Positions 1 to 36,854 of a stretch of DNA of 64,000 nt are shown piece after piece (within the stretch, counting starts at the first letter, position 1; each line of letters begins with the position of its first letter). The translations under genes were made by a program, and so were the position numbers. This stretch comes from Gnetum montanum (lineage: Eukaryota; Plantae; Gnetophyta). The notes beneath the pieces are model-generated. The model saw nothing but the letters and a program-made list of their open reading frames with translations, ran no database searches and was not told the origin of the DNA. The DNA lies in the NCBI GenBank assembly GCA_015680685.1, contig MNCI01002993.1, positions 361,621 through 425,620 on the forward strand. Direction: 5' to 3'.

Positions 1-300
1 GGCTATCCAAGATTAGGTTGAAGCTTGGCATCTCCTCTACAATGATGAACTTAGTAGTAGTGGGGAATTTTTCCCTTGCCACAAAGGCTATCATGAAAGT
101 TCCCCTAACAACAATGTGTAATCCATTGAAGGACTATAGGCATGTTGTTTTTATGGGCTTGATCTACTAAGCAAGGCCTAGTTTGTCAACAATGGTGTAT
201 GGGATGATGTTTGTTGCTACCCCATTGTCAACATGCACCCTATAGATATTGCATTGCCCAAAGTGTATTTGTAATGATTGATCCTTCTTAGTTTGGTGGA
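1..300 (-). pseudogene. Gypsy aspartic protease remnant
   Basis: Minus-strand translation gives RVHVDNGVATNIIP (D-x-G-S/A protease motif region) and PSFNLILD, the decayed segment leading into LGRPW. Contains stops. Confidence 0.75.
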
Positions 301-699
301 GAATGTAGTATTAATAGTTAGAAAATTTTTCCAAATTGTTTCTTCCATGCCCATCACATTTTGTAGCTACTAGCTTGACATAGAAATATTTGCAAAACTA
401 GCCTCTAGTGTTGACTAGGCTCTCTATTGAGCTAACTATGCTCTAGTGCAATGGAGAGCATAGTCCCAACACTTAAAACAAATTGGCAGCCTCTTGCTTC
501 ATGTTGACACTTAGGAAAAATTGCAATAACTTAGTCTTTAGAGCTAACTATGCTCTCCACTAGGCTAACTATGCTTTGATGCAGTGTAGAGTATAGTCCT
601 AGCACTTAGAAAGTGGCCTCATGATGACACTTGGGCAAATTTGTAGTCACGATGCAGTAGCACAAATTTGGTGGTATTTTAGATATTAAGTTTTCCCCT

Positions 700-2010
700 C
701 TTCTTCCATGCTAGGGATAGTATGCCAATATGGAAAACTATGTTGAAATAGATTTTTGCCTTTTCACATCATTTTTGGTCATGCATGTAGGTCCCTGAGG
801 TTGCTAGTGATCATTATCAATGTCTAATGTTAAAATTTTGCTATTTTGAAGGTTGATGAGTATGGTTTTATGATTTTTCACTTTTCCCATGCTAGGGCCT
901 TCATGCTCAACATGGAAAATTATGGGAAAATCTTTTCTAGCCATTTGTGATCACTTTTGGTCATGCATGCAAGCTTTTAGGGTTTCTAGTGTCAACTACT
1001 AACACCTAATGTTAAAATTTGGTCATTTCAAGGGTTATTAGGTAATTTATAGGCTTTCCCAATTTTTTACACATTAGGGCTTCTATGCTCAACATGAAAA
1101 ATTAGGGGGAAGGGCTTTCTAGCTTTTTATGGTTAATCTGGCTACACATGAGCATCCATAGGATTGTTGATGTTGGTTGTTAGTGTCTAAGGTTAAAATT
1201 TAGTTGTTTTGAAGGCTGTGAAGGGTTTTTCATGCTTTTCCCCTTCCATCCACATTTAAGGTGGAAGGATCAACATGGAAGATGTCTCCTTTAGTCAAGA
1301 AAGTTAGATCTAGGCCAAATCGATAGCCGATCAACCATGCATGTTAACCTATGGGGTTGTTGGTGTCGATGGTCAATGTTGGGCATCAAGATCCATAAGT
1401 TTGGATACTTCTAAGTGTCTCATTTAGTCTCCTCATTTTCCATGTTGGGCATGGTGGCCTCAACATGGATGAGAGAGGGATGGCAGTTTTGTACCATATT
1501 TGACCACTTGTGGAACTTTCGGAAGCTTCAAAGGGTTTCGGCAAGGTCTAGGGATCACCAGGCTTTGAAAAATGGCTGATTAGCAATTAATTTAGATCAT
1601 TTTTAACTTTCCCCTATCCATTCACACTGTGGGTGAGATGCTGGATGTGGATGCAACATTCCCTAGCATGAAAACACCAAATCCTAAAGTTTCAACTAGT
1701 TTTAACCAATTTTGACTAGGTTTGGAGGGGTTCTTGATGATGCGGGGCCTAATTTGAGGTCCAACTTGGGCTAGATGGGTGTTTGGAGGGTAAGGATGAA
1801 TGTTACCCCTTTTCTTCCACATTCGGAACAATTTCCTCAGTGTGGAAACCCATGGTATCTAGCTTCATTCATGTTTCACCCAGTTTTGGGAACCTAGGGT
1901 TGAAAAAGGTAGGTTTTGGTTACTAAAAATAGCAAAATAGATTTATTTTAATGAATTTTCAAAATAAGAGGCATGTTTCCACACTAAGCATGGTATCCCT
2001 AGCATGGATG
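700..2010. repeat. Degenerate tandem array, ~180 bp period, ~8 units, each with an inverted motif TTCCA(C/T)RYTR..N~15..YARYRTGGAA
   Basis: Motif cores at ~702, 882, 1065, 1245, 1436, 1620, 1812 and 1976, e.g. ttcccatgctagggccttcatgctcaacatggaaaa. Confidence 0.7.
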
Positions 2011-2466: not shown

Positions 2467-5400
2467 ATGGCCTCAGAGCAACGTGGAGAAAAGAGTAGGA
2501 ACCCTATGATCCAGAAGGTGGATGAAAATTCCTGGGTGCTAGAATAAGTACCCATGCCCATATCCATTCAGGCTTCTTTTGTTGCTATTCCAAGGTAGGC
2601 AATTCTACCTATTTTTTTCCTTTATTCTCTATTTTTTTCTAGTTTTTTACTTACTATGTGTTAAGGCCATTTTTTTCAGATCTACTATGGTGGAGGGATT
2701 AAAATATATTTTTGATGAAATCCCACCTGCTATTTTGGCAGCTTCCATATATATCTATAGTCATTTCATTGCTTTAGATTTTATAGATTTGATTTTTAAA
2801 ATTGGGCTTGTTGTTTCATGCTTTTCTCCAAAATTTTTGGTATGGCTATTTTTTCAAATCTAGGCCTTAGGATTTGTTAAAATTAAATTTCAAAAAAATC
2901 CTACCATATTATTTGGTGAAACTTTTAATGGGTTTCAATGGTTTGGGCTATTTCAACTATTTCTGTGGCTATATGAAATCTAGGTTTTGAGGTTTTTGAA
3001 GTTTTGTCATGAAAAAGTAAGCAATGTTTTATATTTTTTCTTGTGGGAATGTCTTCACATTTGTGAAATTAAATGTTATGGGTTTTTAGAAATTCTATTA
3101 GGCTTTCTAATTGATATTGTCTCATTTAGTTTAGATTCATAACAATGAAGTTATGGCTATTTTCCTAACATTNNNNNNNNNNNNNNNNNNNNNNNNNNNN
3201 NNNNNNNNNNNNNNNNNNNNNNNNNNNNNNNNNNNNNNNNNNNNNNNNNNNNNNNNNNNNNNNNNNNNNNNNNNNNNNNNNNNNNNNNNNNNNNNNNNNN
3301 NNNNNNNNNNNNNNNNNNNNNNNNNNNNNNNNNNNNNNNNNNNNNNNNNNNNNNNNNNNNNNNNNNNNNNNNNNNNNNNNNNNNNNNNNNNNNNNNNNNN
3401 NNNNNNNNNNNNNNNNNNNNNNNNNNNNNNNNNNNNNNNNNNNNNNNNNNNNNNNNNNNNNNNNNNNNNNNNNNNNNNNNNNNNNNNNNNNNNNNNNNNN
3501 NNNNNNNNNNNNNNNNNNNNNNNNNCTAAATGAATTTTTAAAGAATTTTTTGGCTATGGCTATGTGAACAAGGAAAAATTATGGTCATAGCACACTACCC
3601 ATTTGGAGATAGAAGTTGTTGATATGTATAACTTATGTTTTTATTTTTTCATCATGTAAAACTAATGCATAATTTTTTTTTAAAGAAGAGTAAAATATTT
3701 TTCTATTTTTAGGAAGCTTTTACTATGGCTGCATGGCTTTTTCTAAGTTTATGATGCTTTTTCCAAATTTGTGCATAGTTTAGATGTTTTTTCTAGATTT
3801 ATGCATGCTTTGCATAATTTAGATGTTTTTTTCTAAAATTATTCTTGCTTTTTTCTAAATTTATGCATAATTTAGATGCTATTTTCTAAATTTATGCATA
3901 ACTTAGACCAAGCTTTAGTTCTAGCTATAATCCTATGGCTGTGATATTTTGGTTATGGTAATAATGCTTTTATTGGATTTCTTAAGCTAATTTAGATAAA
4001 TGTCTTAGATATTTTTATAGAGGCTAATTTCACTTTCGACTAGATGTTTTTTTGAAATTTCCTAAGTAATTCCAATTGGTCATAATGTTTTTACTTGACT
4101 TTATGTAGGGTTTTCTTGAGGCCTTTCCTCATCATAGTGGTCTTATTCTACATTGGTCATCCCAATACTAACACCCTATCACATGACATGCCTTTTAGGA
4201 AGCTGTCATTATGGTTTTGGCCTAGGATAAGGAATTTCCATGCCTACATCCTTAGGAACTTCAGTGTGATGCTGTGGTCACACTTGTCCATAAATGTAGC
4301 TGGAATTGTTGTGGAGACCCTATTACCTTGGGTGTCTAGCTTGATCGTTAGATTGATTACTAATAAGCCACCCCCTAAGACAACAGGTTGACAAGAAAAT
4401 TCCATAAGCCCACGTTACCTTATGGAGATATGGATGATGCCAAAGTATAGTTGGTATAATACTAACAATACTCTGATGGTTGTGCATAGAGCTCACACAT
4501 TATTCTAGAACCTAATTGGCACCATGTATCATCTTGAAGGGTAAGCATGGTTATTGTAATGCTTTTGTGCTTTTAGCTTGACTACCTTGCATAACGTCAT
4601 TCAATTTTACAACTTCTTGTAGGTACAAGATCAATGATCAAGGTTTGATCATCAATGATCAAATTTTGGCGCTGGCTCAAATTGCTTTGGACGAATTCAC
4701 CAAGAGTCATCAAATTAGAATTATTGTGTATTAGTAGTTAAGAGGGAACTTTGATGCATACACCACCAGGTTTAACCATTTATACAAGAAGTATAAGGAT
4801 GATGGACTAGTGAGCATATTTTGACAACTCCATGGATCAAACCCTTGTAGTTGGAACCTCTACATTGAAGAAGAAAAGGAAAGGTAAACATAAAGACTAT
4901 CATTTTTAGTGTTTCATGGATTTAAGTGTTTTATTACTTTTCCTAGTTGTTAAAATTGCTCATGTTGATGCTAAAATTTTGGCTATTGCTTCATAGGACC
5001 TTCCAGCTTAGTTGATGTTACTATATCACTTTCAAGTTTATGTCATGAGGATACCCTCATTCTAAATTTTGGTGAGGTAACATCAGCATAGGAGTGGTTA
5101 AAGGAATAGGTGCCTAGTTATGTTCAATTAAACAACCAGCATGCAAGTTTTCTCAATGTAGTTGTGGCACCTATCCCTTTCATTCTTGCTACAAAGATGT
5201 TGCATGTCATTGACTCCTTCAATGAAAAGGTTAGTCATTTTAGCACCATCATCCAAGGTGTTAAGATAAACATGGATGTAGATGTAGGCCTCATCCGTGA
5301 CTTGTTGGGTGTCCCTACTGATAGGGCAAAGGTTTCCACCAGAACATTAAGGGAAGTTGATCATTACGATGAAGTTCTAGAATGGCTTGGTACCAACATG

Positions 5401-7640
5401 GGCCACTCTAAAATTTCAATGAATAGCTTCAAAAACCCTGATGCAAAGGAATCATATCCTTTGTTCAAGTCTCATGCATTTCCTAATCTATTATCATAAA
5501 AGAAGGTAATTGGCATAGCACAAGGATGAACCTTTAAGAAAATTTTAATGGAGGACATCAAATTTAATTGGATGGCTAAATTGGCTACTGGGCTTCAAGA
5601 GGAGATCCTTAGACTTCATGTTGATACCTATGTGATAATCCATATGTACCTTGCATTTTTTGCAAGTTATTTGAAGAGGTTTGCAAAGTTTCTAGTGGTG
5701 TATAGGAACGGACAATGTGTTTCTCAAGACCCAAGCCAACTTTCTAGGCCTTGGATAAAGTACATTTATCCAACAATGTGGTCTAGAACCCACCAAAGGG
5801 GATAGAAGATATGTTATCCATCACCACTAAGAATCTCGATGTTAGGAAGTATGAGTCTCCTAATAGTACTAATGATGATGAGCCTCTCACATTTCCTGCT
5901 AGTGTCTAGAATGCTAGATGATGATGTATGGAGGTTGAAGGAGTAGCTAGGGAGAACCTCAAGAGACTTATGGAGGAGGCATCCCTAGCATCAAACCAAC
6001 CTACCCTAAAGATGCTTAAGTTTAAGCTTAGGCCATGATAGTAGGTAGTTACAAGTATTCTTTGTTTAAATTTAGCTATTTTGTGTTTTAAAGTTTATGG
6101 CTACTTTATGGTTTCATGTGTTAACTAGTTTTCTATGTGCTATGGTTGTATATAAGTGTTAAGCTATGGTAGCCAAAGTTACTATAGAGGGAAAACAAGA
6201 GCATGTAGAAGAGGCACTCTTAAAGAAGCCTATGATTGAAGGGCTTGCCAATGCAAATATGAATGATCTAGATGCCTTTTTTGGTGAGGTAGTACTAGGT
6301 ACATTCCCCATCATCATCCTTGAGGAGAAAGAGGAGGAGGAGTGAGGTATGCCTATGGCTTAATATTTTTGTTATATCTCATTGTTTAACTTTGGTTTTC
6401 ATCCTAACCTTTCAATGATTGTTATGATTATAGTAGTTCTTGAACCACTAGCACAAGCTCTTTTCCCTAAGTTTCATGTGAAATCATTGGTAGGGACTCT
6501 AGACAAAGTGAAATTCATGCATGGAATGGCTAATAACATCATTGATCAGTTGCATCAGGTTGCACCCAAGATAGGTAAGGATTTTATTTTACATGTTTTA
6601 GTTGTAGGCTTTGATTTCATTATGGCTATCTTAATTTGTGAATTATGTTTTATGGTTGTATTTTATGCTTATGGAGGGGGACTCCTTGCCTAAGCTTCCC
6701 TTTAATATATCTAGTGTATCCTTGAAGTTGTATGAGAATACTACTGATCTAGCAATGTCATGTGTAAAAACTTCATGGAAGCCAAAGACGTCCAACAAAT
6801 TCCTATGGGAGGAAGTTGTGGCCCTGTGGGAGAATACTCAATGCTAGGCGGAGACAATTTGAGATCTTTGAGATCTTAAGGCCTTTGTGGAAGCCCAAGT
6901 GACTAACTCAGGGGATTTTTAGACTAGGGAGATCACATGGGCCTGCTACTAGCATGTCATTCAAGACAAAGTAGCAGTCCTATAGAAGATGGTGGAAAAA
7001 TGTATGTAGATGGATCTCATCTCCCAGAAGATTAAGGATTGGAAGGATCACTATGCTTGGGTCCTAGAGTAGGGCAAGATACAAAAGGCCATAAGTGATA
7101 GTACAAGGTAGATCATGGGGCCTATGTAAAGTGGCTTAAGTAGGAGTTGGTTGAATGATGCAAGAGAGAGTTATTCATGGAGGGGATCTAGGTAGAGAGT
7201 GTTTATAAACTTTTTGAAAGTACTCTCAAGGTGGAGAAATCCAATTCTCTTCAAATTACCAGTGCTATAGGTAAGACCTCTGCAGCTACTACTACCTAGG
7301 AGCCTCTTACTTGGACTCATATGGATAAGACTAGAATTCTCTTTGGCATTGATCTTGGGGATGTTGACTGGGTTAACATGACAAAGGACCAAATCCTTTA
7401 TCATTTGGAGGAAGGCCTTTCCCATCTATCCCTAGAAGTAATGGAGTTGGAATCTCCATAGGTTTGATCTATTTTATGTTTTAGTTTTTGTTTCAAGTCA
7501 TGATTTTGACTATGGGTTACTAACTAGCTATATGTTTTTGCATTTTAGGCATTAGGAGACATTGGTGGCCCCAACGGCGAGGGTGGGAATGATGCACCAT
7601 TTCCTCCTCTAGATGCCACTCAATAGCCTCATTCAGTTTA
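2467..7640 (+). pseudogene. Spliced accessory gene of element 1, antisense to gag-pol, ~8 exons, decayed
   Basis: Candidate ATG at 2467. GT..AG introns at ~2595-4108, 4541-4622, 4884-4996, ~6045-6187, 6347-6433, 6575-~6672 and 7462-7548. Exon peptides (ORFs 4095, 5110, 5548, 6382) are homologous to minus-strand ORFs 38492, 23859 and 22708 of element 2. Confidence 0.7.
3173..3525. other. Assembly gap (Ns)
   Basis: Run of n characters. Confidence 1.
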
Positions 7641-8130: not shown

Positions 8131-8599
8131 TGGGGTTGTAAAAAATACATATATTTATAATGATTTTTTAATGTTTATAACATAATAAAGAAAGGCTGTA
8201 GTAAGCAAGTAAAAATGCAAACAAACTTAGGCTACATGCATAAGTTGCATGCATAAAGATTAAAATAACAAATGTATAAAAAGATATAATAAACTATAAA
8301 AGAAAAGTAAGGCTACATGGTTATTAGTGCATTTGGTCATAGATGCATGGAAAGGTTAAGGAAAACTTCACTTATGAAAATTATTCCTAATCTTTGCAAG
8401 ATTAGGAAGTAAGTAAGGCCTACTTTATACAAGCTTATATTTTCCATCCCCTTCTCTTACGATGTTAAAAGGAAGTTCATCCCATAATGTATCCTATTTC
8501 TTATCACTGTCATCATTGGCTTTCTTGGGTTTTTGCTCTTCATGGCAAGGAGTTTCTTCTTGAATCTCTACTTTGGAGCCCTACTCTATGTATGTTTTT

Positions 8600-9100
8600 A
8601 ACAATTAGGTGAACTGTGTTATCATCATGAATGATGATTTCACCTCCTTTGTAAAAGGTAAATTTCTTGATGGATGGGAGAGAATGTAGCTTGTAATTGA
8701 TCCAACCAAGATCTTCCTAGGATCAAGTTGAATCCTGGTATCTCTTCCACTGTCAAGAAATTGGTGGTTGTGGGGAATTGTACCTAGGCTACAAAATCCA
8801 AGGAGATAGACCGCTTGACAGAAACTCTTGATCCATTGAAGGGCTTAAGAGTTGTAGTAGTTATAGTTTGTATTTACTCAGTTAGGCCTAAGCATTCAAC
8901 GATGGTGCATGGGATGACATTCATTGTGGATTCATCATCAACATGCACCCAATGCATTTTAAATTTTCCTATGTATATGGTTATGAATAAAGGGGTTGTA
9001 GTTACTTTGCTGTTTTGGGGACTCACTGTAATTTCTCTATTGCAAAATACAAGGCATGTTGTCTTCAACTCGTTTGATGAGGGAGGAACCATAATTGCAT
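8600..9100 (-). pseudogene. Gypsy aspartic protease remnant (element 1)
   Basis: ORF 8874-9092 reads PLFITIYIGKFKMHWVHVDDESTMNVIP. Downstream FNLILGRSWLD matches the LGRPW motif. Confidence 0.85.
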
Positions 9101-9749
9101 GGATGAATTCCTAATTAGTGGAGATATCCTCACTAATGGGGATGGAAGTCAACAATTTGACTAGCATCTCATGGTATGTGGTGAAATTTATGATCAGGGC
9201 ATATAAGCTTAGAGTTCTATTTTTTTCTTGAGGGATTGCTTGACTTGATCCATTGTACTGAGGAATTTTTTATTGTTGGCTATGGGCTTATCACCCCAAT
9301 TGTGTTTTACTTCCTCCATGCATCCTAACATGCAAACATTGGTCCTAGGTTGTGGTTGTTGAGGTTCTTCCTTGTTGTATTGGTTTTAGGCTTTTTAGTC
9401 CTCCTATGGCTTGCTAGTTGAAGGGGTTAGGGAAAAGGCGGTCATGGGTATAGCTAAAATGGAAGTGGACTTTGGTGGACCCACTTCCTTTTGTGCCTCT
9501 ATCTACTTGTCTCCCTTATTATTAGGCTTTTTCTTATGCTTCTTATTTTGTTTGGCTGAAGTTTTTTGGTTGTTAGCCATTGGCTGTGAGGAAGAGGTAG
9601 TAGCATTAGCTACCATAGGAGATCATTTTGTAGTTGTTTTGGCTATGGCTAGTTGGGTTATATTGGGTTTGGAAATCTTGATCATAAAAAATTCCCTTAG
9701 AGATACTCATGATGATACTTTTATGACAAAAGGAGTTCTTAATTTGTGG

Positions 9750-11950
9750 GAAGTTGAAGAAGCCCTTTCATTGTAGAGGGATAGTTGAATCATGAATGGT
9801 TCTCTTGAAAGTCTCTAATCATCATCAATGTTGAATGTTGAAATAACATAAGGGCTATCATTAGCATTCAACAAGTCCTTGTAGACTTGCATTGACTAGT
9901 TTTGTGGCTAAACTGAGTTAGAAGCATCTATGACTAGCTCCTTGCCTATCTATCATCCTTTGTAGGTCATCCTTTAGTGAAAGGTAGAAGTTTATGTCAT
10001 GACCAAGTAGTTGATGATAATGGAAAAAGTGTTCTAGCTTGTAGTATCTAGGTAACCAAGGATCATCCTTCATTTCTCAAGTGGGATCCTTGGCTATTTT
10101 GCATAGCCACTCATGTTTCTTTCAAGTGGCTTCGATCATTTGTTTGTGTTGCATGTGCCTACATTTTAATGTTGGTCTAGAAACTCTAATGGTTTTAATG
10201 GTAGCATAGTGTATTTGGACCCATCATTCCTTTTGAAGTTAGGTCTAGTTGTTGTTGATGCAGTGCCCCAAAAGTTGGCAGTTAGTTATTGTGATCATTA
10301 GTAGGGGCCTTGGGTGGATTGGCCTTTAACCCTTGGTTTGTAGTCTTTATTTTTTTTGTCATAGTTGCTATAGTTGTGTTTTTTTATTTACTCTTTTCTT
10401 TGTCTCTTCGAGTGTATTGGTTTTTATATGCCATATAGGCTACATCATGATTGGCCTCTGTAGCATCCTCTATATTTTTAGTCTTAGAGAATACTTGACT
10501 GAGGGACCACGAGTCAAGGTAGTAGAGTTTAGACTCATGAAGTCATTAACTACTCCCTTAAATATGGCTAAAAAGTGGGCTTCAACTATAGGCTCTAGTA
10601 TTTCATTCAGTAGTTCATTCCATCACTAGATGAACTTCTGTATAGGTTTTAAGTACCCTTGCTTGACCTTCATGAGTTGGTTAAGCATTGTGTTAGGCTT
10701 CAAGTTATACTTGAAGTAGTTGAGAAACTAGGCTAATAAGTCCTCTAAAGAGGATATGGACCCTCTAGGTAATGCATGATACCAATCAAGTGCTTTTCTA
10801 ATCAAAGACATAGGAAAAATCCTCATGATGATACAAGGCCATGGCTACAAGAGTAAACATTTAGATTGAAAGGTAATAAGGTGAGCATTAGGGTCACCTT
10901 TTTCCATTATATTTACTAAATTGGGGAATAGAAACACCAAGAGTAAGTGTCAAGTATGGGACTAAAGGACTTATGAGACCATCCTTGTAGAAGTTCATAA
11001 TCTTGAAAGTTTGTGAAGTAGAGGCTTTAAGTCTCTTCAACTCCTTTGTTAGGCCTTGGATCATCTAGAAGGCTTGATCTAGATCATATGATGGCCTTGT
11101 TGGTTGTAGGGTTTGCACATATGATTGTGGCATCTATTGTCAGGCTTGTGGCCTTACTATGGCTTGCATGATGGAAGAAAGAGGTTGTGTCACAATCGTA
11201 GCTTGTGGGCCAAAAAAAGAAAAATATTTTTGTGTTGCTACTTGAGACAAAAATGGGACAAATGGGATGTGTGATTCTTGTGTTGCTTGGGATCCCCTGG
11301 ATGATCCCACATGAGTAGTTAATAGATTTGTCATGGTAAAAACCACTATCAATGGTTTTATGTATCAATACTACATTGTAAATGACATTGATGTGTTAGA
11401 TTTTTTTGTTTGTGGCATTGGCTGAGTTTGATGTGTGGCTATAACTAGCATGGGATTTGCCATAGTAGGATAGGAAGGAGTGGAAGATGGTGGCATCATG
11501 TCCATGGAGAAAACAAAAGCATTAGAGAAATGTGTTGTGATCTTGGGGGATGTTTGTTGGAACAACCCTCGCAAGATAATATCACACTTAGATTCTACCT
11601 TAAATTCATCCTCCTCTTCCTATTATTCCTCAAAGCTATGCTTGTCATATTTCTCTTCCATGGAAATCAATTAGGCTAGGATGCTAGCATAGATGCCATT
11701 AAGGGAAATTTGATCATATGGGGAAGAGATGTACTCCTTCCTACTTCTATGTATGAGCTCAAAATTCCTCTTGGCCTTTGCTTCAATACATGGAATTAGC
11801 ATGCCTGCCTATATTTTAGCACAAATGAAGTTGTAAAAATCTTCATGTATGGCTGAAAAATTAAGACTTTTCTCTTTGATCCTCACAGATCACCTACACT
11901 CAATGATGGTATGGTCTTTGGGATCATAGACCCTCATGGCTTGTTGGCTA
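9750..11950 (-). pseudogene. Gypsy gag remnant (element 1)
   Basis: GKGDPNAHLITF (~10870-10910) and IFPMSLIRKALDWYHALPRGSISSLEDLLA*FLNYFK (~10710-10820) match the Retrotrans_gag domain. FHYHQLLGHDINFYLSLK (~9975-10030) is a decayed Tat/Ogre-type zinc knuckle. Confidence 0.85.
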
Positions 11951-12259
11951 TGATCTTCGCCATAGAGGGTGAAGGCCAATTTGGTGGATTATTAGAAAGA
12001 CATGGCTATAGTGTTGAGAATAGCTTAAAAATTGGATATAAATGGTAAAATAGAAGTAAATTCCAGTGAATTTAATTCAAAAAATTTTAAAGAAAATGAA
12101 AATAGCAAACAATTAGGTACTTACTATAATTAGTAAGTGGGAGGATAAGAGGGGTTTTCCCCTTACCAAGAATGAAAAGTTGGAAATGTTGGTTTCAATC
12201 CTCATCCAAGTTGGCCTTGCAACTACCTCTATGTTGGGTGTGAAAAGGGGAAAATGAAG

Positions 12260-13050: not shown

Positions 13051-13193
13051 GATTTTGGTCAGAGAGGGAGGGCAGGGGAAAGATCAACATTGATTCTTCA
13101 AGGATTTTGACTATAAAAAATCAAAGAAAATTTTGCCAATGGCCATGTTGGTAATGGAGAAGAATAGATCTAGCCAGAAAATTTGGGAAAAGT

Positions 13194-13210
13194 CCCTCCT
13201 TCTAGCACCA
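13194..13210 (-). promoter_or_regulatory. Primer binding site complementary to the plant tRNA-Asn(GUU) 3' end
   Basis: Minus strand TGGTGCTAGAAGGAGGG, a CpG-decayed TGGCGCTAGAAGGAGGG, close to the LTR end. Confidence 0.8.
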
Positions 13211-13221
13211 ACAAAAACTAT

Positions 13222-14430
13222 TGTGACTAAAAACCTCAATCCATGGAAAATCTAGAGATTCCCATTGTAGCAGTTCCTCAACTCACAAATCCCTAGGGCC
13301 TCCATGAGAAAAAAAAAGGATTCAAGGTGCCTTGGCTAGTCTAGTAGATCAACCAAGGACTTAGGAAATGCGAAGCATGATAATAAAACAAAACAAAATG
13401 CAAAAATGATCACTGATCTAAAATAATGAATAGATAATAAACAAATATATTTCATACAAAAAATCAAAAACTTAAAAAATTTTATTAATAAAGAATAAAG
13501 TGTAAGTCTAAGAAATGTATAGAAATGATGCATGGATGAGTAGAAAGAGGATTCACTTATGCAAGAGTTCAAAGCCCATTGAAGCTAATGTGATCTACTC
13601 CAAGATTTGGATGCTAAGCCAATCGTAATGTCATTGAACCTCTTGCATTGCAACCTCAAATTTGCAAGTTCGGTTACTACTTGGGGGGATGAGAAAAGTG
13701 GGAAATATGACTGCTAGATTACTCCATGTTGGGGATTGTGAGCCCTAAAAATGCAGTTTTGAAATCAAAAGTTCACAAGTCTTAAGGCTATAATGCCTTC
13801 ACACCAGGGTTTAAGAAAATGCATGCATGGGAACTTGAGAATGCCCCAAGTGTAGAATTAGTGCTTAAAAAATTGATTTTATGCTCAATGTATTTAAATT
13901 GCAAAAGTTCAACAATGAGAAAAAATTACTAAACCTGTAAATGATGTTTGAGGTTGGCTTTTATATGCTATTTAGGCCACGAATGGAGCTACAAAATGGC
14001 TACAAAAATGGTTGCAAACTAGCTGCCAAATTTAAGTGAAATGGGTACCAAAATTTGGGGGGTTACTATACATAGTAAGTGGTTCCCCTATGGCCATTTC
14101 ATTTACTATAAACAGAAATTGAGGTACACCTTCCACGTTGGAGATGTATCTTCCATGCTGAACTCTAGCTATTATGGCTTCCACATTGGGGGATGCAATT
14201 TTCAATGCTAGGGGTGAAGACTCAATGGTGGGGAAAAACTTTCATGCTAAGGAAGAAAGGTTTTCAAGCTATGTATGTGGTCTCCACGCTGAAGGGGAAA
14301 AGTTTCCTAAACCCCCACCCTTCCACATTGTGGGATAGGTGAGNCACTTGGGGAATGAGGATTGGACCACTTATGAGTCATTTCAAATACAAAAAAATAA
14401 AGTATGTGAAATTAGCCACTATGGGTTACA
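13222..14430 (-). repeat. 5' LTR of element 1
   Basis: TG...CA termini (tgtaaccc...gtcaca on minus), adjacent to the PBS. Its 3' end resembles the LTR end at 49310-49444. Confidence 0.7.
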
Positions 14431-19720: not shown

Positions 19721-19771
19721 TATTTTTTTAGGTCAATAATAAGGATAATGATGATGTTATGATAAGTGTAT

Positions 19772-21119: not shown

Positions 21120-24116
21120 TTATTCCTATTTCCTTTGCATTTACATAAAACTATAAAATGACATAAAAAACTTAAAACTTAAAATCAAACTAAAAACATG
21201 GTCTACCATGGCCTAAAACTGATGGCCTATGATGGCCTAAAATTGGTGATTCCATGACCTCCATTGCATCTACCTTATGTGTAAATTATGAAATATTTAC
21301 TTCTTTGTATTACATATAGTTTTTACCTTAAAATTTATGCCTTGTGTTATTTTTTTATCATCAAAATTTATTTTATAGCTTTATTATTTTAACTCCTAGC
21401 CTTTTATGCAAGAAAGATATAAAATATTAAAAAGCAAAAAATTTAACCTATGATAAAAAATTTCCATATCAGTAGCCATAATCACATTATCTAATAAAGA
21501 GACAACAACAAAGAATATAATATAGTCATAGTTGCACAATGCAATAAGATAACAATAAATAATACAATATCCAAGGCTATGAAAGCCAAAACAATAATAG
21601 GACCAATAGTGTGGCAAGAATAATATAACATGGTATGCCAAAAAAAGTTTGCCAAAACTAAGCTATAGGAGGAGGAGGAGGATCATTAACAATATCATCT
21701 TTAATGTTCTCATCATCATCACTTAAGACCTATAAGAAAAAAAATATATAAATCATTAGTAGCCATCATAAACAAAACATAACTATGAAACCATAAAATC
21801 TAAACAATAACAAATATAAAAATATAACATAAAAGGTTAAAAAATTTTACACAACCCTCTAGGGAATCAAAAGCTATGTCTTCAAGAGGAAATATTTGAA
21901 GACCTGCTTCTAAACTATGAAGAATTTGTTCTTCACTCATGTTTGTCCAATCAATGTCTCCTAGATTCAATCCTATAAGGATCTTTCTCCTCTCTATGCC
22001 TTTCCACTAAGGTGAACTGTGGAAGAAGTTAGCAGTGATGATTTTCCTAGATGTAGTAGTGATTTGAGGAGTAGGAGACTTAACAACAACCAAAAATTTG
22101 GTAAATATGTTATAAATGTCCTCTACAACTATCGCCTTAATGAATAACTCATACTTACATTGTGTCATGGTTGTATCATGCCATAATTTCATGTAATTTT
22201 CCTTCTTCACCTTGTATAGTTGTTTGTGAGCATTTTTTTTACCTCACTTTAACACCCATGCACATTAATCATGCTATTCCTTGGACTTTTGAACTAGGAG
22301 CTCCATTTGCATGTCTTTCTCCAAGTTACTTTTGGCTAGAGAAACTTTACCTTGGATGGAAATCCAATAGTGGGACTACTCTATTTATTTAGTTTGCACA
22401 AAATCCCTATTGAACACTTGTACCTTTATGAATTCATTACAAGAGGTTATTAACCTTGTTGGTGAGCTCCTTGTTTTGCTTTCTCAATGTCACAAACTTC
22501 TCCTAGAAGAACTCATTTGAAAGTTGAACCTTCCATAATGTTTTTGAATAAGATGAAGCACATTCAGTGACCTCTTAATATAACTTGCATGGAACTTTAT
22601 CAACATCAAAGGGTAAGGCTAGGAACTCATAAAATTCAAAGTCTTGTAAAGGGTTCCATTATATTTTGGAAATTACAAGAACATAAAAAAATAATATTTA
22701 AAACACTTTAAAAAACATAAAACACTATAACCATAAAACATAAAAAATCAAAATATATGAAATAAAATAGTTTAACATTTCTCATACCAAAATCATGAGA
22801 TATTTGTTGCAATTTGTCTACCATATCATTCATTAATCCCTTCATGAATTCCAACTTCTCTAGGGCCTCCACCAAAGGTTTGGAGTAGAATGTAAATATA
22901 GATGTTTCTAGTGAAGGTTCATACTCTATAATTACCATAATAGTTATACATTAATTAGAACAAAGATGAAAAAAAATCAAAACATAAAACAAAACTTAAA
23001 ACATACTAGGAAGACCATGAGATAGGTCTTTTGGAGGATTGTTCTTTGGAGGTAAATCATCTAAGATGAAATCAAGTACATTTAGAGCTTCCATGGATGT
23101 CCTCTCCTCCTCTTCCCTATTATGTTGCTCATCCTCTATACTAAGCTTAATGGCCATCTCCTACTTCTTTCCTACAATAAAATAAAATCATTAAAATATA
23201 AAAAAATAGCAAAGATTTAAAAATAAAAATATAACAAAAATACAAAAAATATTTTTAAAAACTAAAAAATAAAAATATACAAAAAAAATTTCCATACCTT
23301 TAACATCTTGATTTACTATGTTGAGCTTGATGATAATCTTCTTAGACATTTTCTTGTTAGGAACCTAAACATTGTCTTCAACATGTGTCTTCCTTATCTT
23401 CTTTCTAGTAGCACTTTCTACTTCTGTTGATAACTTCTTGATCTTCTTTGCACTACCACATGTAGCATGAGGCTCCACCCCTATGTTTTTAGAGGAACAT
23501 CCATGAAAACCACTACGATTATTAGTGGTAATAGACAATGATTCTCCTATCTCCTCCACTAGTGAATCTTGGTGATGTATAACTTGAGCTATATCTATAG
23601 CCTAAGTTGTAGAGAGTTGGAGAGGATCATGTACAACTCATTTTCTATCTCCCTTAATCACTAGAAACTCCATAAACCTCTTAATATATGCAAAAAAGAA
23701 TGTATATTGCATGCGATGAATATTATCAAGATTATTATAGAGCTTTCATATTTCATCCCTTAAGCCAATGACTAGGTGGGTAACTTAATCAAACATAGTG
23801 TCATTAGTTAACACCCTTTTTTTATTATCCAAGCCTGCTGATCTCCTATAGTTTCCTTCTATGATAGTAACAAGAAAAATTCCCTAGCATAGAAAAGGGG
23901 ATAGGTCTCATTGACTTCCTCAACTTTACACTTGTTAAAGATCAATGTTGCATTGGAAGGAAAGTTAATCCAAGCCTTCATTTCTTCTCTATAGCCTATA
24001 TCTTTCCTTACTCTAGTGAAAACCTTGGCACCATTGTATGCTATGCCAAAGATATCGCTAAATATGGATGCATTAATACTCAAAAAAATAGGATAACCAT
24101 GAATATGGATGATGAA

Positions 24117-25131
24117 TGATGAGACATGATATCACATAGGCCGCGATATCAAGTCGTCCCCTACGATATCGCGTACGCGATATCGTGGTCTACCGCCAAG
24201 TCTATAAATAAGAGGTAGCTCTCCCTTGTTTCATCATCTTGAGTTAGAAGTAGGGAAACTCTGGCAGTTTGATCACTCCAAAGGTAGAATATTTTCCATG
24301 TGCCCGCAACAGGAGTCCTAAAGTAAATGGATCTTTATTCAAGCAACATTGTACCTAAACACAAGTTGTGTATGGAAATAAAGATGAACTTCCTGTATAA
24401 ACCTTGCAGTGCATGGAATAGGATTTTATTTATTGTTAATTATTGCTTTCTCTTAGTAATGAGGAATGAGTAAGACTTGATTACGAGCATCTAAGGATGT
24501 GTACGGATAGTCAAGAAATCGACTGCTCATCGCAATGCGGTATGAGTACGACTTGATTACAAGCATCTAGTGTGACTACTTGGTAACCCAATGGCGTATT
24601 CAGGATCTATGCTTGGTAATCCCAGTGGTAGTCATGCACAAAGATGTGTACGGTTAGTCAAGGAATCGGCTGCTCATTGCACTTAGGCTAGATTAGATTC
24701 TCTCAACCCTTTCCTCCTAGTTAAGTGCCTTAGTACGACCACTTCAAGCATGTGCATTATGTGTGGTGATCCTAGCAATGATTAGCGTTTGGTAGTCGCG
24801 GTTGCATCGGTTTAGGATGTGTACGGTAAGTGGGAAAGGATGTTGATGCTAGGGAATTTAGACTTAGTTCATTAGTTAGAGTTAGTTAGTTTATCCAACC
24901 CTTCATCTCAATAGCATAGGAGATAAAACATAAAAGACCATAAAAATCATATACCTCGGACTTACTTAACCATACACCGTGACAACCACAAGTAAGTCTA
25001 GGAAGACAATGAATGATTAACCCCAAGTGTTCCATGGGGTGTGTAGGCACTTAGTCTGTGGAGTTTGACCGGATTGCCCATGCTATGCTCGTTTCATATG
25101 GTTGAGTGTAGGGGTACCTCACTACTCATTA
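24117..25131 (+). repeat. Solo LTR (Athila-like family) with 5-bp TSD atgaa
   Basis: Termini tgatgag...ctcatta. atgaa at 24112-24116 and 25132-25136. TATA-like tctataaata. Similar to LTRs at 50803 and 60939. Confidence 0.9.
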
Positions 25132-25682
25132 ATGAATTTGGTGATCCCCTCATCAAAAGAGTCAATCATGTTCAATATCTTAATAGGAGGCATTATTGAA
25201 CTTGGTAACATGAACAAATCTTATAAACTTGCATTAGTAAGCCTATTTTGGATGTCAATATGAGTCTTCTCCACCACCCATTCTTGTGTGAAGTCTACTT
25301 TACCCCACTTAAGTTGAATTTTCTTCTCAAAACATCTTAAGATAGTCACATCAACCATAGACCTACTCACATAATCTAAAATCACAACATTGTTTACTTG
25401 TTAGACTTTTAAAATTGTGAAAATTTTAAAAACAAAAGAGAACAAAAATAAAAAAACTTTAAAAAATCAAAAATACAAGAAATGTTGGCTATAACAAGCA
25501 ACTATTACTTACTAGAATTAGGAAAATCTAGAACCTTAGGATGAGCTAGTATAGGTTATTCTAAGTGTAAATAGGTTTACCATTTGTGTTCATGATTGGT
25601 CACTATGCTTATTTCATACATGTGGGAATACCTTGTATAATATCTATCAAATTCAACATTGAGCTGATTGAGCACTTTAACT

Positions 25683-26804
25683 TATTGAGCTTTTGGTATC
25701 TCAAAATCTTAGAAATTGAAGAATGTGATAAATGAGTTTGTTTAATATTGCAAGTCTAAGAAAGAACAAGATAAGAACATGATGGAATCAGAATAAGACC
25801 TAAGATTGGGACAAGAGCTTATTGGTGTAAAGACAAGGACTCCATGAGTTTGAGATAAGAGCTTCATGTTATGAAGATGAGAGCTATGTTGAGATGATAA
25901 GAATTCTCAACCAAGATGAAAGATTTCAAGGATTCATGAACTGTATAAGCCAAACATAGATGTTTCAATATCTGCTTGGACATCTGAGAAGATTATTAGA
26001 TGTCACAAAGGTGAAGTTTCAATTTTAGAATAAATGTTCGAAGAAAATAGTAGACATTTCAATTGCTATTTGGACATCCTACTTTTTAGTGGGACATCCC
26101 ATTTGCAAGTAGCCTATTTTTAGTTAGACATCCCAAGCTTAAATAGGATGTTCTAGCTAGTCATTTCCTAATTGTTGCATGAATTCCAAGGACTAGTTGG
26201 AAAGTAAAAGGCTATTAAATATAATTGTAAAAAGCACAAGAACTATACAAGAATTATTCATTATTTATTATATATGTCATGTGATTATTGTATTCCATAA
26301 TTATTTGATCATTTGTGAATTATTTTTTTGTGAGATCAAATTGCAAGAAATTTGTAAAGTTAGTTACTTTCTCTCCTTGATTCTTTTTCTCTCTTTTTAG
26401 CCCTATTGGGATGATGTGCTTCTTACAAGAAGGCATCTTATGAGCTTGTTTGAACCTTGTGGAGTTGAGTGTATTTCTAGCAAGAAAACACTCTATGCAG
26501 AGCTCATATCATTATAAACATTGTAGGTCCTTGAAACCACATTTTGAGCTTGCTATCACCTTGTGAGATTAAGTGTGTTTCCAATGAGAAAATACTTCAA
26601 GATGAGCTCAAAAAATTTAAAGGTTATGGTGTCCTTTAAATAAATTTTTGAAGGAACAAAGTATTGAGATATGTAAGGATTCTACCCTCCATGTGTGGAT
26701 GTACCCAAGCTAGAAAACTATGTAAATTTGTGTGAAATTTTGGTTGTCTTAATTGTTTGAATTTGGGAACTTATTCAGCCCTCCTTCTAAGATCTTGGTC
26801 CTCA
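25683..26804 (+). repeat. 5' LTR of the copia element
   Basis: Begins tattgagc (decayed TGTTGACC), ends cttattcagccctccttctaag...cctca, followed by the PBS. Confidence 0.85.
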
Positions 26805-26806
26805 AG

Positions 26807-26818
26807 TGGTATTAGAGC
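26807..26818 (+). promoter_or_regulatory. tRNA-iMet primer binding site
   Basis: tggtattagagc, one mismatch from TGGTATCAGAGC, 2 bp after the LTR end. Confidence 0.85.
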
Positions 26819-26846
26819 TCAACACTCTTAATTTTTAGAGCTTAAC

Positions 26847-27959
26847 TATTGACCTTTTGGTATGTCAAAACATTAAGAAAAATTGAGCACAAAGATGTTT
26901 GTGTGTTTGTGTGGTTGTTATGTTTTTAGAACTTGGATTAAGACAAGAAGACATGTGGAAGTTCAAGAACATGGACAAGGAACAAAGACTTCAAAGCTTA
27001 GAAGAAAGCCTTAGCATTGAAGAGTTATTTTCAGAGAAGATGTCTTGTAGAAATAGTAGACATCTCCAAGGAAAAGAAGACATATTAGTAGAATTGAAGG
27101 CAACATAGGAGAAGACGTCTCTAAAAAATAGTAAATGCCTTTCTAGAGAGAAGGATAGCTTTTAAGAGAAGAAGATGTCTTTGCAGAATGATGGTCTAAA
27201 GTAGAAAGACATCTTAGACTTGAAGAAGACATCTCTCTAGAATGAAGGTTCATTATAGAAAGATGTCTCTATCTTAGAGAAGACAACTGTGACTATTAAC
27301 TAGCCATTTTATGGATTTCAAAGTGATTTTAAAATCATATTGACTATAAGAAAACTTCATTCTCATTGGGCGAAGAGAAAGCATTGTGTACTTTCTTTAT
27401 ATTCATAGAGAAATCATTGTAATAATTGTTGTTCCTCATTGTACAATCTTTTGTCTATTTTAATTGATCAAAGTGAGATGTACCTCAAAGTGCAAGGATC
27501 AACAAGCCTAGTTGCATTATTTTCTTATGATTGTTGTTCTCTATTGTTGCCTTGAAGGGTTGATGTACTTCTTGTAGGAAGGCATCTTACTTGAGGTTGT
27601 TAGGAACCTATGGGATTAAGTGTTGGTATAGCACCACAGCACTTTGGAGTAGAGCTTAAATTGTAAAGGTTGTAGGATCCTAGAAACCACATTCTAAGCT
27701 TGTTAGGACCTTGTGGGGTTGAGTGGATTCATAGCATCAAATCACTCCATTGTAGAGCTTAGAGCTTGTACAGGGTGTGGTACCCTTCAAATAACATTTG
27801 AGAGTAATAAAGTCTAGAGGTGTGCTTGTGAATGACCTTCCAAGTGTGGACTATCCAGGTTGGAGAAACATGTTAATTTTGGTGTGCACTTTACTTCAAA
27901 GAATTTTTTTTATTTTGGGAACATATTCATCCCTCCCCTTATAAGTTCAACAATCCTCA
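26847..27959 (+). repeat. Nested solo LTR of a related copia subfamily
   Basis: tattgaccttttggtatgtcaaaa...atattcatccctcccctt...cctca. Flanks ttaac / ttagc form a TSD with 1 mismatch. Confidence 0.75.
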
Positions 27960-27989
27960 TTAGCACCTTAAGAGTGAACAATAAAAGGA

Positions 27990-29450
27990 ACATCTTACAC
28001 TAAGCAACCAATGTTCAATGGAATTGACTTTGCATAATTGAAGCCTAGAATGGAAGGATTATTCAAATGCATGAAGTTATATGTCTAGAAATCCATTCTT
28101 GAAGGTTACATGTCACCCATAGATAGCACCACAAGAGCTACCAAGCCAAGAAGCAAATGGATTCAAGATGAAAAAGATAAGCTCATGTTGAAGTCAAAAG
28201 AAGAAAATTATCTTTATTATTCTTTGAGTAAATTTGAATTTAATAGAGTAGCTAGATGCAAAATCACAAAAGAAATTTGGAAAACACCAGAGACAACATA
28301 TGAAGGTACATCTATTGTGAAACAATTGAAAATTCTATTATTAGAAAGTGAATATGATAAACTCAAAATCAAAGAAGGAGGGATAATCAAGGATTATTTC
28401 TCTAAAGCTAATGATATAGTTATAGCCATTTCCGGGATAGAAGAATATTTACCTAAAATAAATGCAATTGTTAAAATGATTAGAACTTTGCATCCTGAGT
28501 TTAGACCAAAAGTTATAGCCATGGAGGTAATAAGATATTTATCATTTCTAAAATTTGAAGAACTTCAAATTGCACTCATTGGTTATGAGATGAATCTCAT
28601 TGATGAAGGTGCTATAAAAAAATTCCATTACTCTAAAAATTTCATTAAAGGAGAAGAATCCACCTAAACATGAAGTGAATAGTGAAGATGAATTGGCTCT
28701 ATTGTCTAGGAGAGTTCAAAGATTACTTGCATGAAAGGGTAAGGGTTTTAATGAATACAACATCAAAGGTAAGGAAAGAGGTAAGAATATTAAAAGTTTA
28801 AATCTTGATACATTCTCTATAGGATGTTGGATTTGTTATGGTAGAGGCCATGTGATCTTTTTATTTCTAAGTGTTCGTAATTTTATAAGGAAGGATCAAT
28901 CCAAAGATGATACGAAAAAGAAAAATATTTATACAAGCTAGGATGATGAGAAAAGTGAGGAGAAACTAGATGATATGATAGTAGGTTCAAATATTATGTG
29001 CATGGCTCTTACACATGAAAATTCTATATAAGTCCTTGAAAAATGTAATGGTAAATATGATGAAAGATATAGTGGATTTTATGAGGAAATTGTTACTCTA
29101 CATTATTTACTTAAAAAATAAAGAAAAATAATGCATAGAAAAGAGAATGAAATTTTTGAAATCTATAGTATATTCTCCACTCTAAAAAGAGAACTCTCAT
29201 ATGTAAAAGGTAACATTCAATTACTAACTTATTTATATGAGAAGAAGTGTAGAGATAAACAAGATGCAAGGACTACAAAAAATTAGGAAGTGCCTCAAAA
29301 TTAGCAAAACAACAAAGATTTAAAAGAGAAATAAGACCATCTTTGATTATCCTATCCAAATTAGAAATACCCTATATTTTTTTGTAAAGTATGTGGACAT
29401 GAACAAGGTTACTATCATCCACCTATAGAGCAAAATAATGTTGCTACTTG
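27990..29450 (+). pseudogene. Copia gag (UBN2-type) with CCHC remnants
   Basis: ORF 28110-28667 reads EFNRVARCKITKEIWKTPETTYEGTSIVKQLKI...KMIRTLHPEFRPKVIAME. CWICYGRGH at ~28824. Confidence 0.9.
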
Positions 29451-32400
29451 GTCTTGTTAAGGGAAGTCTAGTAAGTGTAACTTTTAGGGTACAAAACATT
29501 TGAGAACCAATGAATAAGAGGAAGGAATGATCTCTAGTAAAATTAAAGAATTAGTACCCATAACTAGGAAAAATTATTAGCCCTCTCATTTTGAAGAACA
29601 TGAGCATGAAAAAGTAGCAATCTCACATGAGTTTGAAAATTCAAACCAAGGTGCTAATGAAAGAAAAGGTAAGGAACAATTACATACTAACAAGGTACTC
29701 AATGATGGAGGAACTCACCTCAAACTTCATTAATCATGTTCATGTTAGAAAGAAAGCAAGGTAAGTAATGATAATTCTTTATTCCTTCTCTTACTAGACT
29801 TAATGTAGATTAGTTTATGTTTATAAATGATTAGAAATTAGGAAATTAATGAAATGGATGCTATTGAAAATCTTTGATTATCCAAAGAAAATCTCACTTA
29901 ACATTACAAGATGTTGAGCTGTAGATGATAGCATACGACCATCAAAATTTTAGTAAATATTGATGAGAATTGTCTCAAGAGAGAATCAAGGTACAAAAAC
30001 TCACAAGGTAGGATCTAGTAAGTTTACATCATCTCACTACTATTAGAACATATATACCTTGAGATACAACTCATATGATGTAGATATTATGGTTATTGTT
30101 GGGTTGTAATATGTTTTGAAATATTTTTGATGAATATTGACAAATCAATTTTTGGGTCCTTAACTAGTATGTAATGCTTTCAATTGGTTCATGGATCTTG
30201 ACTAAAATTCATAAATCTTTTAAGAAAGATCAATGTAGAGCTTTTCATTGAAAGGAAAATTATTGTGCTATGATGGTATATTTTGCTAAAAATTTTGGTA
30301 TTTATAATCTATTAAAGGAACTAATATTGAGAGACTTTATGTTTAAAAGTCTCCATACTTGATCTTAGTATGGCATTACAGATTTATTAATATTGATTAG
30401 ATTCAAGGATGCATCTCTATAAAGGAAAGGTGAAAAAAGGAAGGAAATTAAAATAGTAGATGCATTGCAAAAGTTGGAAGAAAATTTGCAATTATGTAGG
30501 GGAAACCTGTACCTCATCAATAGTCATTATCTTTTGGACCACTAGTGTAGAGGGAGTCTTCATATACTCTCATCAAAAGACATTCAAGTTTCAATACATC
30601 CAATTCTAGAACCCAATGTAGAAAATGAAAAAAAAAAAGATTTTTTCATGATTGAATTTCCTAAAGTATATAAGGTAACAATGTAAGTTAATTTTGGTCA
30701 AATGATTTTTGATCCTTTAGCTAAAGATGGCCTTTATTGGTGTTGATATTTAAGATTGATATGGTTGTATCAAATTGTTTTATTAGCATTATTTTAAGGA
30801 TATGATTGGTTATGCTTGATATTTTTTAGTATTCTAAGATTGTGTTTTTTTGAATATTTTTATGAATTTTGAATCTAAGGTCTTCAAAAAACATGTGCTA
30901 TTTCATTCACCTTTGAAATGAAATCTACTTGTAGTACCCTTTTGATGATGTCCAAAAAGAAGGAAAAGATGTTTTTCATAAGATCTTAAGATATCTGTAT
31001 TGGATATATGGTGAAGACTATTACTATTTGTTAATACTATGCTATTATTATGGATATATTCTTCATAATCATAAATCTTGTCCTATAAAGTAAATAGTGA
31101 TTTTATTACTAAGGACTTATGGTCCATAATTTTAGATGTAGGATGCTTGATCTTCAATGCTCAGCCTTTGGTCCTAAATAGAAATATTATAGATTCATAT
31201 TTGAAAGGATATAATTATGTCTCTTTGTGTTTAAATGGTTCAAGATATTTTTTTATACCTTTGAAACCTATGTTGAAGGAAGTGTACTTATGAATGGCTA
31301 TGCATCTCTTTGTCATCCTTCGTTAGATATATATTTAGAAAAAGTTTGTACTTTTAATTTTGGCTGAGAGGCCAACTCATGTCATAGGATAGGGGGGGAG
31401 GGGGGAGGGGGGAGTGGATTTTTCACCCTCCAAGTCGCACCCTCCACATCATGTGCCACCTAAGATCCCATGAAATAGGAAAAAACATGAATCAAAGAGC
31501 CATACCTTTTCATATTCCCATTGCACAGAATGTGAACTAAAGAGTCATAGCTTTTCATATTCCCGCTACACACATAAAAAGGCCAAACATAATCAAATGT
31601 AGAATGGGAATGGGAATGGGAATGAGAATTCCATTTCCATTCTATATCTTTCTTTATTTGCAACTATTGTTGTAGGCCACCTAGCCCAACCAAACCAACT
31701 TTGATGATGCTAGCTTTGGAGCTCCACTAGAGTGCTTGAAAGGCACCTACGATGGTGGCCCATGCTTCAACTGAAATAACAAGCTCATCGACATGTGCTT
31801 CTTCAACCAAGGTAGCAATAAGGTAATAGGCCAGTCAACCCTTGCCTCATCCTCACTTAACACCGAGGGCCACGACATGCACATGTCATCAATAATTTCT
31901 GACAATGCCATGGTTGATGTCAATGTGCTTGGCCAGCCAAAGACACTACCTAAGACATGGCTTGGCTTGCATGGATTGCCATCTACAACATCTGGTGGGA
32001 CTGTGACTACTTTAGCTCTAACATCCTTGTGGCCATGGATGCCACTCTATTTGACGGCATTGACTTGATTTTGCTCTCACTTGGTGATAATGTATAGCAG
32101 TACTACAGCAACAGCATCACCATTGGCACCTTCATTGCTGCAGTCCACTACCACGTCTTTGTTGCTTACCCGATCGAAAAATCCAGACACAATGCTAACA
32201 TCACCTCAAATCTCATGCCTTGGATCATGACCATTGTTGCTAGCACCCTTGACCATGACTTCCTAGCCATCACGGTGCTCGCTTATGGCAGCGAGTATGC
32301 TGGAACCTCACTCTACTCTAGGGAACTACTACTAGAAGATCCAAATCTCACACTCATCTATGCTATAAACAATAGCCTCGATGGCAATAGAAATGTGAAC

Positions 32401-34076: not shown

Positions 34077-34328
34077 ATCTCTTTGTATTCCTTCACGTGC
34101 ATGCACCACATGCATGGGAGCTAAAGAATCAGTGTAGGAGAGTTGAATCTCTACTCAATTAATGTTCCCTAATCCTTGAGCTTCCCATTCATCTCTTTGT
34201 ATTTCTTCACATGTACACAGCACATGCAAGGAAGCCAAAGAGTCACTGCAGAGGAGCCAAATCTCTATTCAATTGATGCCCCCTAACCCTTGGGCTCCCC
34301 ATTCATCTCTTTGTATTCCCTTATGTGT
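34077..34328. repeat. Tandem duplication, ~114 bp unit x ~2.2
   Basis: atctctttgtatt at ~34078, 34191 and 34305 with colinear unit similarity. Confidence 0.8.
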
Positions 34329-34719
34329 AGGGCTCGACGTGGGTAATAATGAATATTTATTATTATAAATGGTAGGTAATATTGAATATTTATCATTATT
34401 ATAAATAGTGATGGTTATGATTACAATAATAATGAATATTTATTATTATTATAAACAGTGACGATTATGGTTATAGTGATGGTTACGATCATGGCAACGG
34501 TTAAGGTGATGATGATTACAGTGTGATGCAGTATTTAAAAATATTAAACTTAGGCATCATGTTACAAGATTAAGCAATGTAATATTGGAATTCATGCATT
34601 TTTAGAAACATGGATCCTACTGCTATTATTCCCAATAGAGAAGGTGAAGAACACTCTCTTCAAGATTAGCAACAACAACCATCTACTACAACAAGTAGTG
34701 CAACAACTATATATTGCAA

Positions 34720-36194: not shown

Positions 36195-36382
36195 TTGCAA
36201 TAATTGTGCAATGTATTCCTTCATCAACATATATGAAATATATATACTTTTATTTTAACCAAGTTATGTTTACTAGTATATATTTTTTGGAATGCAAATA
36301 GTGATGATAACTTAAAAAATAAAAAAAATAATTAAATTCTACTCATAGCCCACAAAACCACTCCACTAGCTCATATATATAT

Positions 36383-36767: not shown

Positions 36768-36854
36768 CTTGATATATATATATCTAAGCTAGTTGTTTAA
36801 TCATATGATATTATAAAATATGCTAACCCACTTTCTCAAGTTTTGGACATTACC

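Follow-up and report, generated by a model that had tools for sequence, protein, structure and literature searches.

A tandem array of spaced palindromes beside an antisense gene in decayed Tat/Ogre-like retrotransposons of Gnetum montanum, with candidate binding sites shared by the LTR

The window analysed here, a 64-kb stretch of a Gnetum montanum contig, is repeat-rich and plant-like; CpG occurs at 0.16 and CAG/CTG at 0.37 times the expected frequency. It holds two partial copies of an LTR retrotransposon in opposite orientation, designated elements A and B (Table 1). Read on the minus strand, element A runs from its LTR through a primer-site-like stretch, gag and a protease-like domain to a stop near 8480, followed by an antisense gene, an array of palindromes and a second protease-like domain; its own pol lies outside the 64-kb window. 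The second protease-like domain resembles the pre-RT region of a metagenome locus (L001). Of the two such domains in A (1-330 and 8700-9050), one closes gag and the other opens the pol side; this twofold protease might reflect alternative terminal exons or separate translation of pol. Over positions 1-3172 and 13120-14343, contigs from three organisms reached summed depths between hundreds and tens of thousands and were mostly 80-95% alike, suggesting that the element family is abundant and old; the copies seen were all heavily decayed. In a comparison covering sequence outside the main exons, two RNA runs gave 24 matching records in 12.6 million and 34 in 12.9 million, none of them at least 95% alike.

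Table 1. Positions of the features of elements A and B in the 64-kb window.
Feature	Position	Strand	Evidence
Element A, second protease-like domain, beyond the array towards pol; cut by the window edge	1..330	-	48% aa identical to the gag-linked domain
Element A, array of 8 units of ~182 bp, each with the spaced palindrome TTCCAYRYTR-N13-YARYRTGGAA	704..2009	.	motif scans
Element A, antisense gene, decayed; ~9 predicted exons, roughly 1000 codons; assembly gap 3173-3525	2467..7626	+	blocks homologous to B
Element A, gag-protease ORF, decayed; ends ~60 codons past the protease-like domain	8480..12003	-	PF03732, E=1.2e-4
Element A, primer-binding-site-like stretch just inside the LTR end	13194..13210	-	where the A-B match stops
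Element A, 5' LTR, outer side truncated by a copia LTR at ~14345-14356	13218..14350	-	homology with the 3' end of B
Element A, 7 same-strand half-sites clustered in the 5' LTR (putative U3)	14131..14330	+	matrix scan
Element B, homologous antisense gene, split by two insertions	21700..40365	-	27-55% aa identity to A, E 9e-63 over most exons
Element B, array of ~190-bp units with the palindrome CCACACATTGG-N13-CCAATGTGTGG; extra half-sites at the pol-side end	40706..42680	.	motif scans
Element B, pol: RT, RNase H, archaeal-type RNase H, integrase-like region	43750..47250	+	PF00078 5e-9, PF17919 3.5e-15, PF13456 1.5e-7
Element B, 3' LTR; putative start from a purine tract, end matching that of the A LTR	48265..49444	+	

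Element B is a diverged copy spanning 21.7-49.4 kb. Its antisense gene is split by a copia element (25683-38015) and a solo LTR (24117-25131), each flanked by a perfect 5-bp target duplication, and an intron of the gene contains a 155-bp duplication (39085-39395). The integrase-like region was recognised by tblastn to related loci and has no Pfam match; no protease was seen in front of the RT, with which the pol of B starts, and the gag side is missing. A 10-bp array lies in front of this pol (43050-43600). The palindrome arrays of A and B are homologous (score 205 vs 88±11). Pieced together from the two partial copies, the element would read LTR, gag-protease, antisense gene, array, pol and LTR over ~20 kb; no single complete copy of this combined layout was seen in the window.

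Several further features accompany the two elements. The copia element (gag PF14223) holds a weak Pif1 helicase fragment at 34600-35100, a foldback at 35301-35943 between the two copies of a 264-bp direct duplication (97.7%), and a second foldback at 36355-36798. The AT-rich stretch 15577-20597 (25% GC), with inverted repeats at its bounds and no credible Pfam match, may be the remains of a DNA transposon. A third Ty3/gypsy element, more distantly related and with a readable RT, lies on the minus strand at 55500-58300, and a GC- and CpG-retaining island at 62250-63100, perhaps the 5' end of a host gene, contains a 125-aa ORF without a Pfam match.

The pol of element B combines a non-chromovirus, OTA-type RT with an extra archaeal-type RNase H (PF13456 behind PF17919/PF17917), as expected of Tat elements, and this extra RNase H lies between the RNase H and the integrase, as in Ogre elements. 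The best RT matches of B carry the same domains. The nearest relative of the B RT is a Cryptomeria protein (45%), with which it grouped beside Ogre-like angiosperm elements (97% SH-aLRT) in a quick tree where B sits on a long branch. The host element is a decayed, high-copy Tat/Ogre-like LTR element. In related metagenome loci with both gag and RT, the two lie at most 4.4 kb apart in 8/8 cases, without such a gene or array between them. The best 80 of 111 confirmed Tat loci, on metagenome contigs that were mostly short, contained no homologue of the antisense gene, no motif and no 170-200-bp array, and no related Tat loci were found in viral contigs. One metagenome locus (L002, 95-7234) holds two near-identical Tat pol regions head to head, representing an inverted duplication or an assembly artefact.

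The antisense genes of A and B were compared over 602 aligned codons in 10 blocks. Differences numbered 279, 201 and 389, and transversions 145, 96 and 221, at codon positions 1, 2 and 3, respectively (p=6e-12, in a test that is partly circular in that the blocks were chosen by BLAST). In A, six GT and five AG sites could be placed, with three acceptors not resolved, and six splice positions are common to A and B. The codon differences show that the antisense gene has been under protein-level constraint. The initial annotation, made from the letters of the window, had placed the array upstream of an antisense gene; codon constraint and conserved splice positions support that gene, and in B as in A the array lies head-to-head between it and the pol side. 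A Pfam search with the decayed exons gave no match, leaving DNA-binding, VANC-type, DUF1985/DUF287, PMD and Transposase_28 domains undetected, while PDB sequence searches with the decayed protein returned nothing credible and word-based protein searches, one covering longer proteins and one, by alignment, those near it in length, returned no homologue. The sole full HMMER match, a Flavobacterium repeat protein, was rejected as a summed-repeat artefact. AlphaFold models of the protein had low pLDDT values (30.6 and 40.0), and a fold search with the model of 30.6, which is too poor to tell, found only generic helical hairpins at Z<7. A profile comparison with the Transposase_28-bearing antisense ORF of locus L041 gave a probability of 0.06, the sequences being decayed. 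By eye, exon 5 seems to us to recall the PMD/DUF1985 pattern, and exon 8 begins with what we take to be a coiled-coil-like stretch. According to the available part of PMC13547354, VANC is structurally related to the PMD protein MAIN, which is why the PMD-like lead in exon 5 matters.

The left arms of the A array start at 704, 885, 1067, 1248, 1438, 1620, 1815 and 1977, giving spacings of 181, 182, 181, 190, 182, 195 and 162 bp and a period of ~182 bp. The palindromes have 10-nt arms, separated by 13 nt in seven of the eight units and by 12 nt in unit 1. The pattern TTCCAYRYTR-N12/13-YARYRTGGAA was matched by 7/8 units with at most three mismatches in total; for unit 6, which is degenerate, the register at 1620 was chosen by eye. 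An order-3 Markov background is expected to yield 0.0125 full sites per kb (at most three mismatches), and the window contains 15 exact half-sites as compared with 3.78±2.03 in 100 shuffles, seven of them in the A array and four in 14131-14330. The array of about eight units at ~180 bp, each with an inverted motif, which was described initially, is therefore present, and its motif is enriched over background. The units are true but old tandem copies (48-68% identity), falling under the threshold of Tandem Repeats Finder. Across 23 sites, motif positions 6/7 read TG in 11, CA in 9, CG in 2 and TA in 1 (Fisher p=6e-4), so that the CpG half of a proposed CpG/CpHpG decay of the A motif is supported; the CHG half, read at positions 8/10, was weaker and only borderline (p=0.057, 20 of the 23 sites informative). 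Repeats of ~120 bp lie between the A array and the pol side (375-650).

The motif of element B was derived from 15 half-sites, with the degenerate left arms at 40706 and 42433 excluded. It has T at position 8 in 15/15 half-sites and mostly CA at positions 6/7, without the CpG-decay pattern. As compared with A, about five of 11 positions differ and the core-to-core spacer is 15 rather than 13, a change of the palindrome that is common to both arms and all units, whereas a CAC..TG core is kept by both. The contrast is a single one, between two subfamilies, and joint change of array and LTR could also result from linkage or gene conversion.

The half-site recurs in the LTR of element A. With a matrix from the A array alone, we found seven sites of at least 10 bits in 14120-14356, as compared with 0.11 expected from the rest of the window (Poisson 4e-11; ~8e-8 after a rough correction), which bears out the clustering of the array half-site initially noted at 14130-14350. 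All are on one strand, forming direct repeats and not palindromes. An alignment to the 3' end of element B covers 13450-13189 (z=8.6 vs shuffles) and breaks off at 13210-13194, in the primer-binding-site-like stretch, which we take to be of the tRNA-Asn type. This homology fixes the LTR end of A near 13218 and thereby places the cluster ~900-1100 bp upstream of the LTR 3' end; it also lies upstream of a TATA-like box near 13960. Since direct A-B homology was not detectable over the cluster itself, its probable placement in U3 rests on continuity. Other family copies contain extra half-sites in the cluster, and four of the five inserts listed there differ from the half-site at no more than one position. 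A primer site near 14045 was considered and dropped after the LTR-end homology with B was found, and in a read comparison with three organisms the LTR end was not visible as loose ends.

Each of the seven LTR sites of A obtains a better score from the A matrix than from the B matrix. B-type half-sites occur in the 3' LTR of B at 48504 and 48555; these two, at matching distance and orientation, score higher with the B matrix and are the only B-type sites of at least 8 bits in the homologous region, vs 0.5 expected. Co-variation of LTR and array is thus clear for A only and weak in B, and the initial statement that the LTR and array of A have the motif in common is borne out. Two further repeats were seen in this part of element A. 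A 16-bp palindrome, TTACTA-N4-TAGTAA, lies at 14063, ~100 bp upstream of the TATA-like box, and again at 12121, just upstream of gag. The 5' leader contains two tandem ~430-bp copies (12180-13044) with scattered A-type half-sites, the strongest at 13040, which yield five matches of at least 10 bits with the A matrix vs 0.57 expected. Around the 14063 palindrome, the stretch 14022-14103 had the highest summed family depth in two of three DNA runs, suggesting a strongly conserved second element.

The reading we prefer, to which we give slightly less than an even chance, is that the array and the LTR cluster are double-stranded DNA binding sites for the product of the element's own antisense gene, located at the LTR and at an internal promoter. 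Another account would be a neutral, satellite-like tandem expansion in a non-coding region, with the LTR cluster as a relic of copying. The decay of all copies seen would suit such an expansion, of a kind often met with in Ogre and Retand; in the available text of PMC11963269, family-specific tandem arrays without an assigned function are frequent in Retand elements. However, transversions were fewer in the arms than in the rest of the unit in both A (63/542 vs 1135/4248) and B (46/458 vs 744/3179; pairwise counts). The arm rate is below half that of the rest in both arrays, in a test that is partly circular because the registers were defined by the motif itself. Symmetry and period are kept in two subfamilies with differing motifs, and the LTR cluster has only the half-site in common with the array, not the whole unit (alignment 63.5 vs a shuffle maximum of 65). 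We therefore regard neutral expansion as improbable.

The sites could instead form an enhancer read by a transcription factor of the host, with tandem duplication having increased their number at the internal promoter as well as in the LTR; the antisense protein would then serve another role, such as RNA export, integration or chromatin tethering. Clusters of host-factor sites are common in LTRs; the CAC..TG core common to A and B and the lack of a recognisable DNA-binding domain in the antisense protein are in line with this account, which we consider rather unlikely. The concerted change of motif and spacer between A and B in both arms fits a co-evolving binder better than a fixed host factor, and to our knowledge the spaced palindrome matches no plant factor.

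The sites are regularly spaced. The gaps between successive sites in A are 149, 149, 148, 157, 149, 162 and 129 bp, four of the seven being 148-149 bp, and those in B are 148, 135, 179, 157, 157, 157 and 156 bp, five of the seven being 148 or 156-157 bp. The AA/TT/TA periodicity in A peaked at 10.0-10.2 bp, a level reached by 1.3% of background 7-segment runs; that in B was reached by 3.4% of such runs, with the highest peak at 11.3 bp. Because the units are homologous, the single-segment ranks (6% in A, 13% in B) are the fair measure, and the periodicity is moderate once unit homology is allowed for. These features are suggestive of one palindrome per nucleosome linker.

Alternatively, the palindromes might act as RNA hairpins in the genomic transcript, being a packaging, dimerisation or Rev/RRE-like export signal bound by the antisense protein. 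Most of 12 units examined fold as hairpins (z -4.97 to +0.83), and the very long intron-like interval would require the export of unspliced RNA. However, hairpin folding is trivial for any palindrome, and the LTR sites, as same-strand repeats, are unable to pair with each other. The T/A variation at arm position 1 is unmatched between arms (5/8 concordant, ~4.5 expected), and the nucleosome-like gaps point to DNA. On balance, an RNA signal seems highly improbable.

If the sites are bound as DNA by the antisense-gene product, each palindrome would lie in a linker and be occupied by a dimeric binder, with positioned nucleosomes filling the gaps of 148-157 bp. The bound protein may keep the internal promoter open for the antisense gene, resulting in autoregulation, and perhaps for pol too; the same protein might activate or protect the LTR promoter through the half-site cluster. 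The antisense orientation of the gene would preserve its introns when the genomic RNA is reverse transcribed. Whether pol would be expressed from the internal promoter or by splicing of the ~8-kb stretch as a giant Ogre-type intron is in our view about an even choice; neither a TATA nor a start site was recognised where the array faces pol. In its widest form, the proposal describes a gymnosperm retrotransposon lineage with gag split from pol, with its own spliced trans-activator or anti-silencer between them, and with one co-evolving set of operators that lies in the linkers of phased nucleosomes and runs both the LTR and an internal bidirectional promoter, as a retrotransposon counterpart of VANC. 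We offer this larger picture with considerable doubt. What antisense accessory genes do in plant LTR retrotransposons is left open in the available portions of PMC7264820 and PMC11963269. The present family offers candidate targets for their products: because the motif is sharp and symmetric, common to the LTR, and different between subfamilies, binding and co-evolution are directly testable. Should the element's own protein read the motif, this would constitute a sequence-specific self-activation system in a retrotransposon, and would bear on how such elements swelled gymnosperm genomes despite heavy methylation.

Among known systems, the elements resemble the Ogre lineage (Ty3/gypsy, non-chromovirus, OTA, Tat) in having gag-protease apart from RT-RH-INT and an archaeal RNase H before the integrase. 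In the parts of the sources available, the two Ogre ORFs are separated by an intron of 274 bp on average (PMC6317226), and the extra ORF lies either 5' in sense or 3' in antisense orientation (PMC4408406). In contrast, the two ORFs here lie ~8 kb apart with the antisense gene, containing predicted introns, and the array between them, and in A the protease recurs on the pol side.

Retand, Grande, RIRE2 and the gymnosperm TatIII elements with an eORF are similar in their antisense accessory gene and the family-specific tandem arrays nearby. The antisense gene of Grande has its own promoter and a nuclear product (PMC7264820, available text), and according to the accessible part of PMC11963269, Retand-type antisense ORFs lie between pol and the 3' LTR in a region of 2.9-6.6 kb, carry TRP28 or PMD, encode proteins predicted to bind DNA, and are accompanied by repeats of 8-100 bp. 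In the present elements, however, the gene is placed between gag-protease and pol; introns are predicted for it and no Pfam domain was detected, and the unit is 180-190 bp long with a spaced palindrome recurring in the LTR. The gap between the integrase and the LTR of B is ~1 kb, with the antisense gene upstream of the RT. More generally, extra ORFs are placed 5' of gag or 3' of pol in the available portions of PMC11963269, PMC7264820, PMC6317226, PMC4408406, PMC12859917 and PMC12786077.

With VANDAL transposons and their VANC proteins, the elements have in common an element-encoded accessory gene, spliced there and predicted to be spliced here, and motifs whose sequence varies from one related family to another and shifts in concert in all units. 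The motifs targeted by VANC are densely packed in tandemly repeated non-coding stretches, all in one orientation and specific to the family (PMC5735166, available text), and dense, family-specific motifs in non-coding tandem repeats were likewise found here, in two subfamilies only. In contrast, VANDAL is a Mutator-like DNA transposon and the host here an LTR retrotransposon; VANC motifs have a single orientation and the present array is palindromic; and binding and demethylation are proven for VANC but hypothetical here. The initial proposal of a retrotransposon analogue of the VANC system is partly supported, by the family-specific motif (A vs B) and its sharing with the LTR; a VANC-type, PMD or Transposase_28 domain was not detected in the decayed exons. 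The literature covered, mostly open-access papers, describes neither a retrotransposon VANC analogue nor an antisense gene or palindrome array between gag-protease and pol. Taken together, these comparisons indicate that the element is not a VANC/VANDAL, Retand or typical Ogre member, and that its layout is apparently an undescribed variant of Tat/Ogre-like elements.
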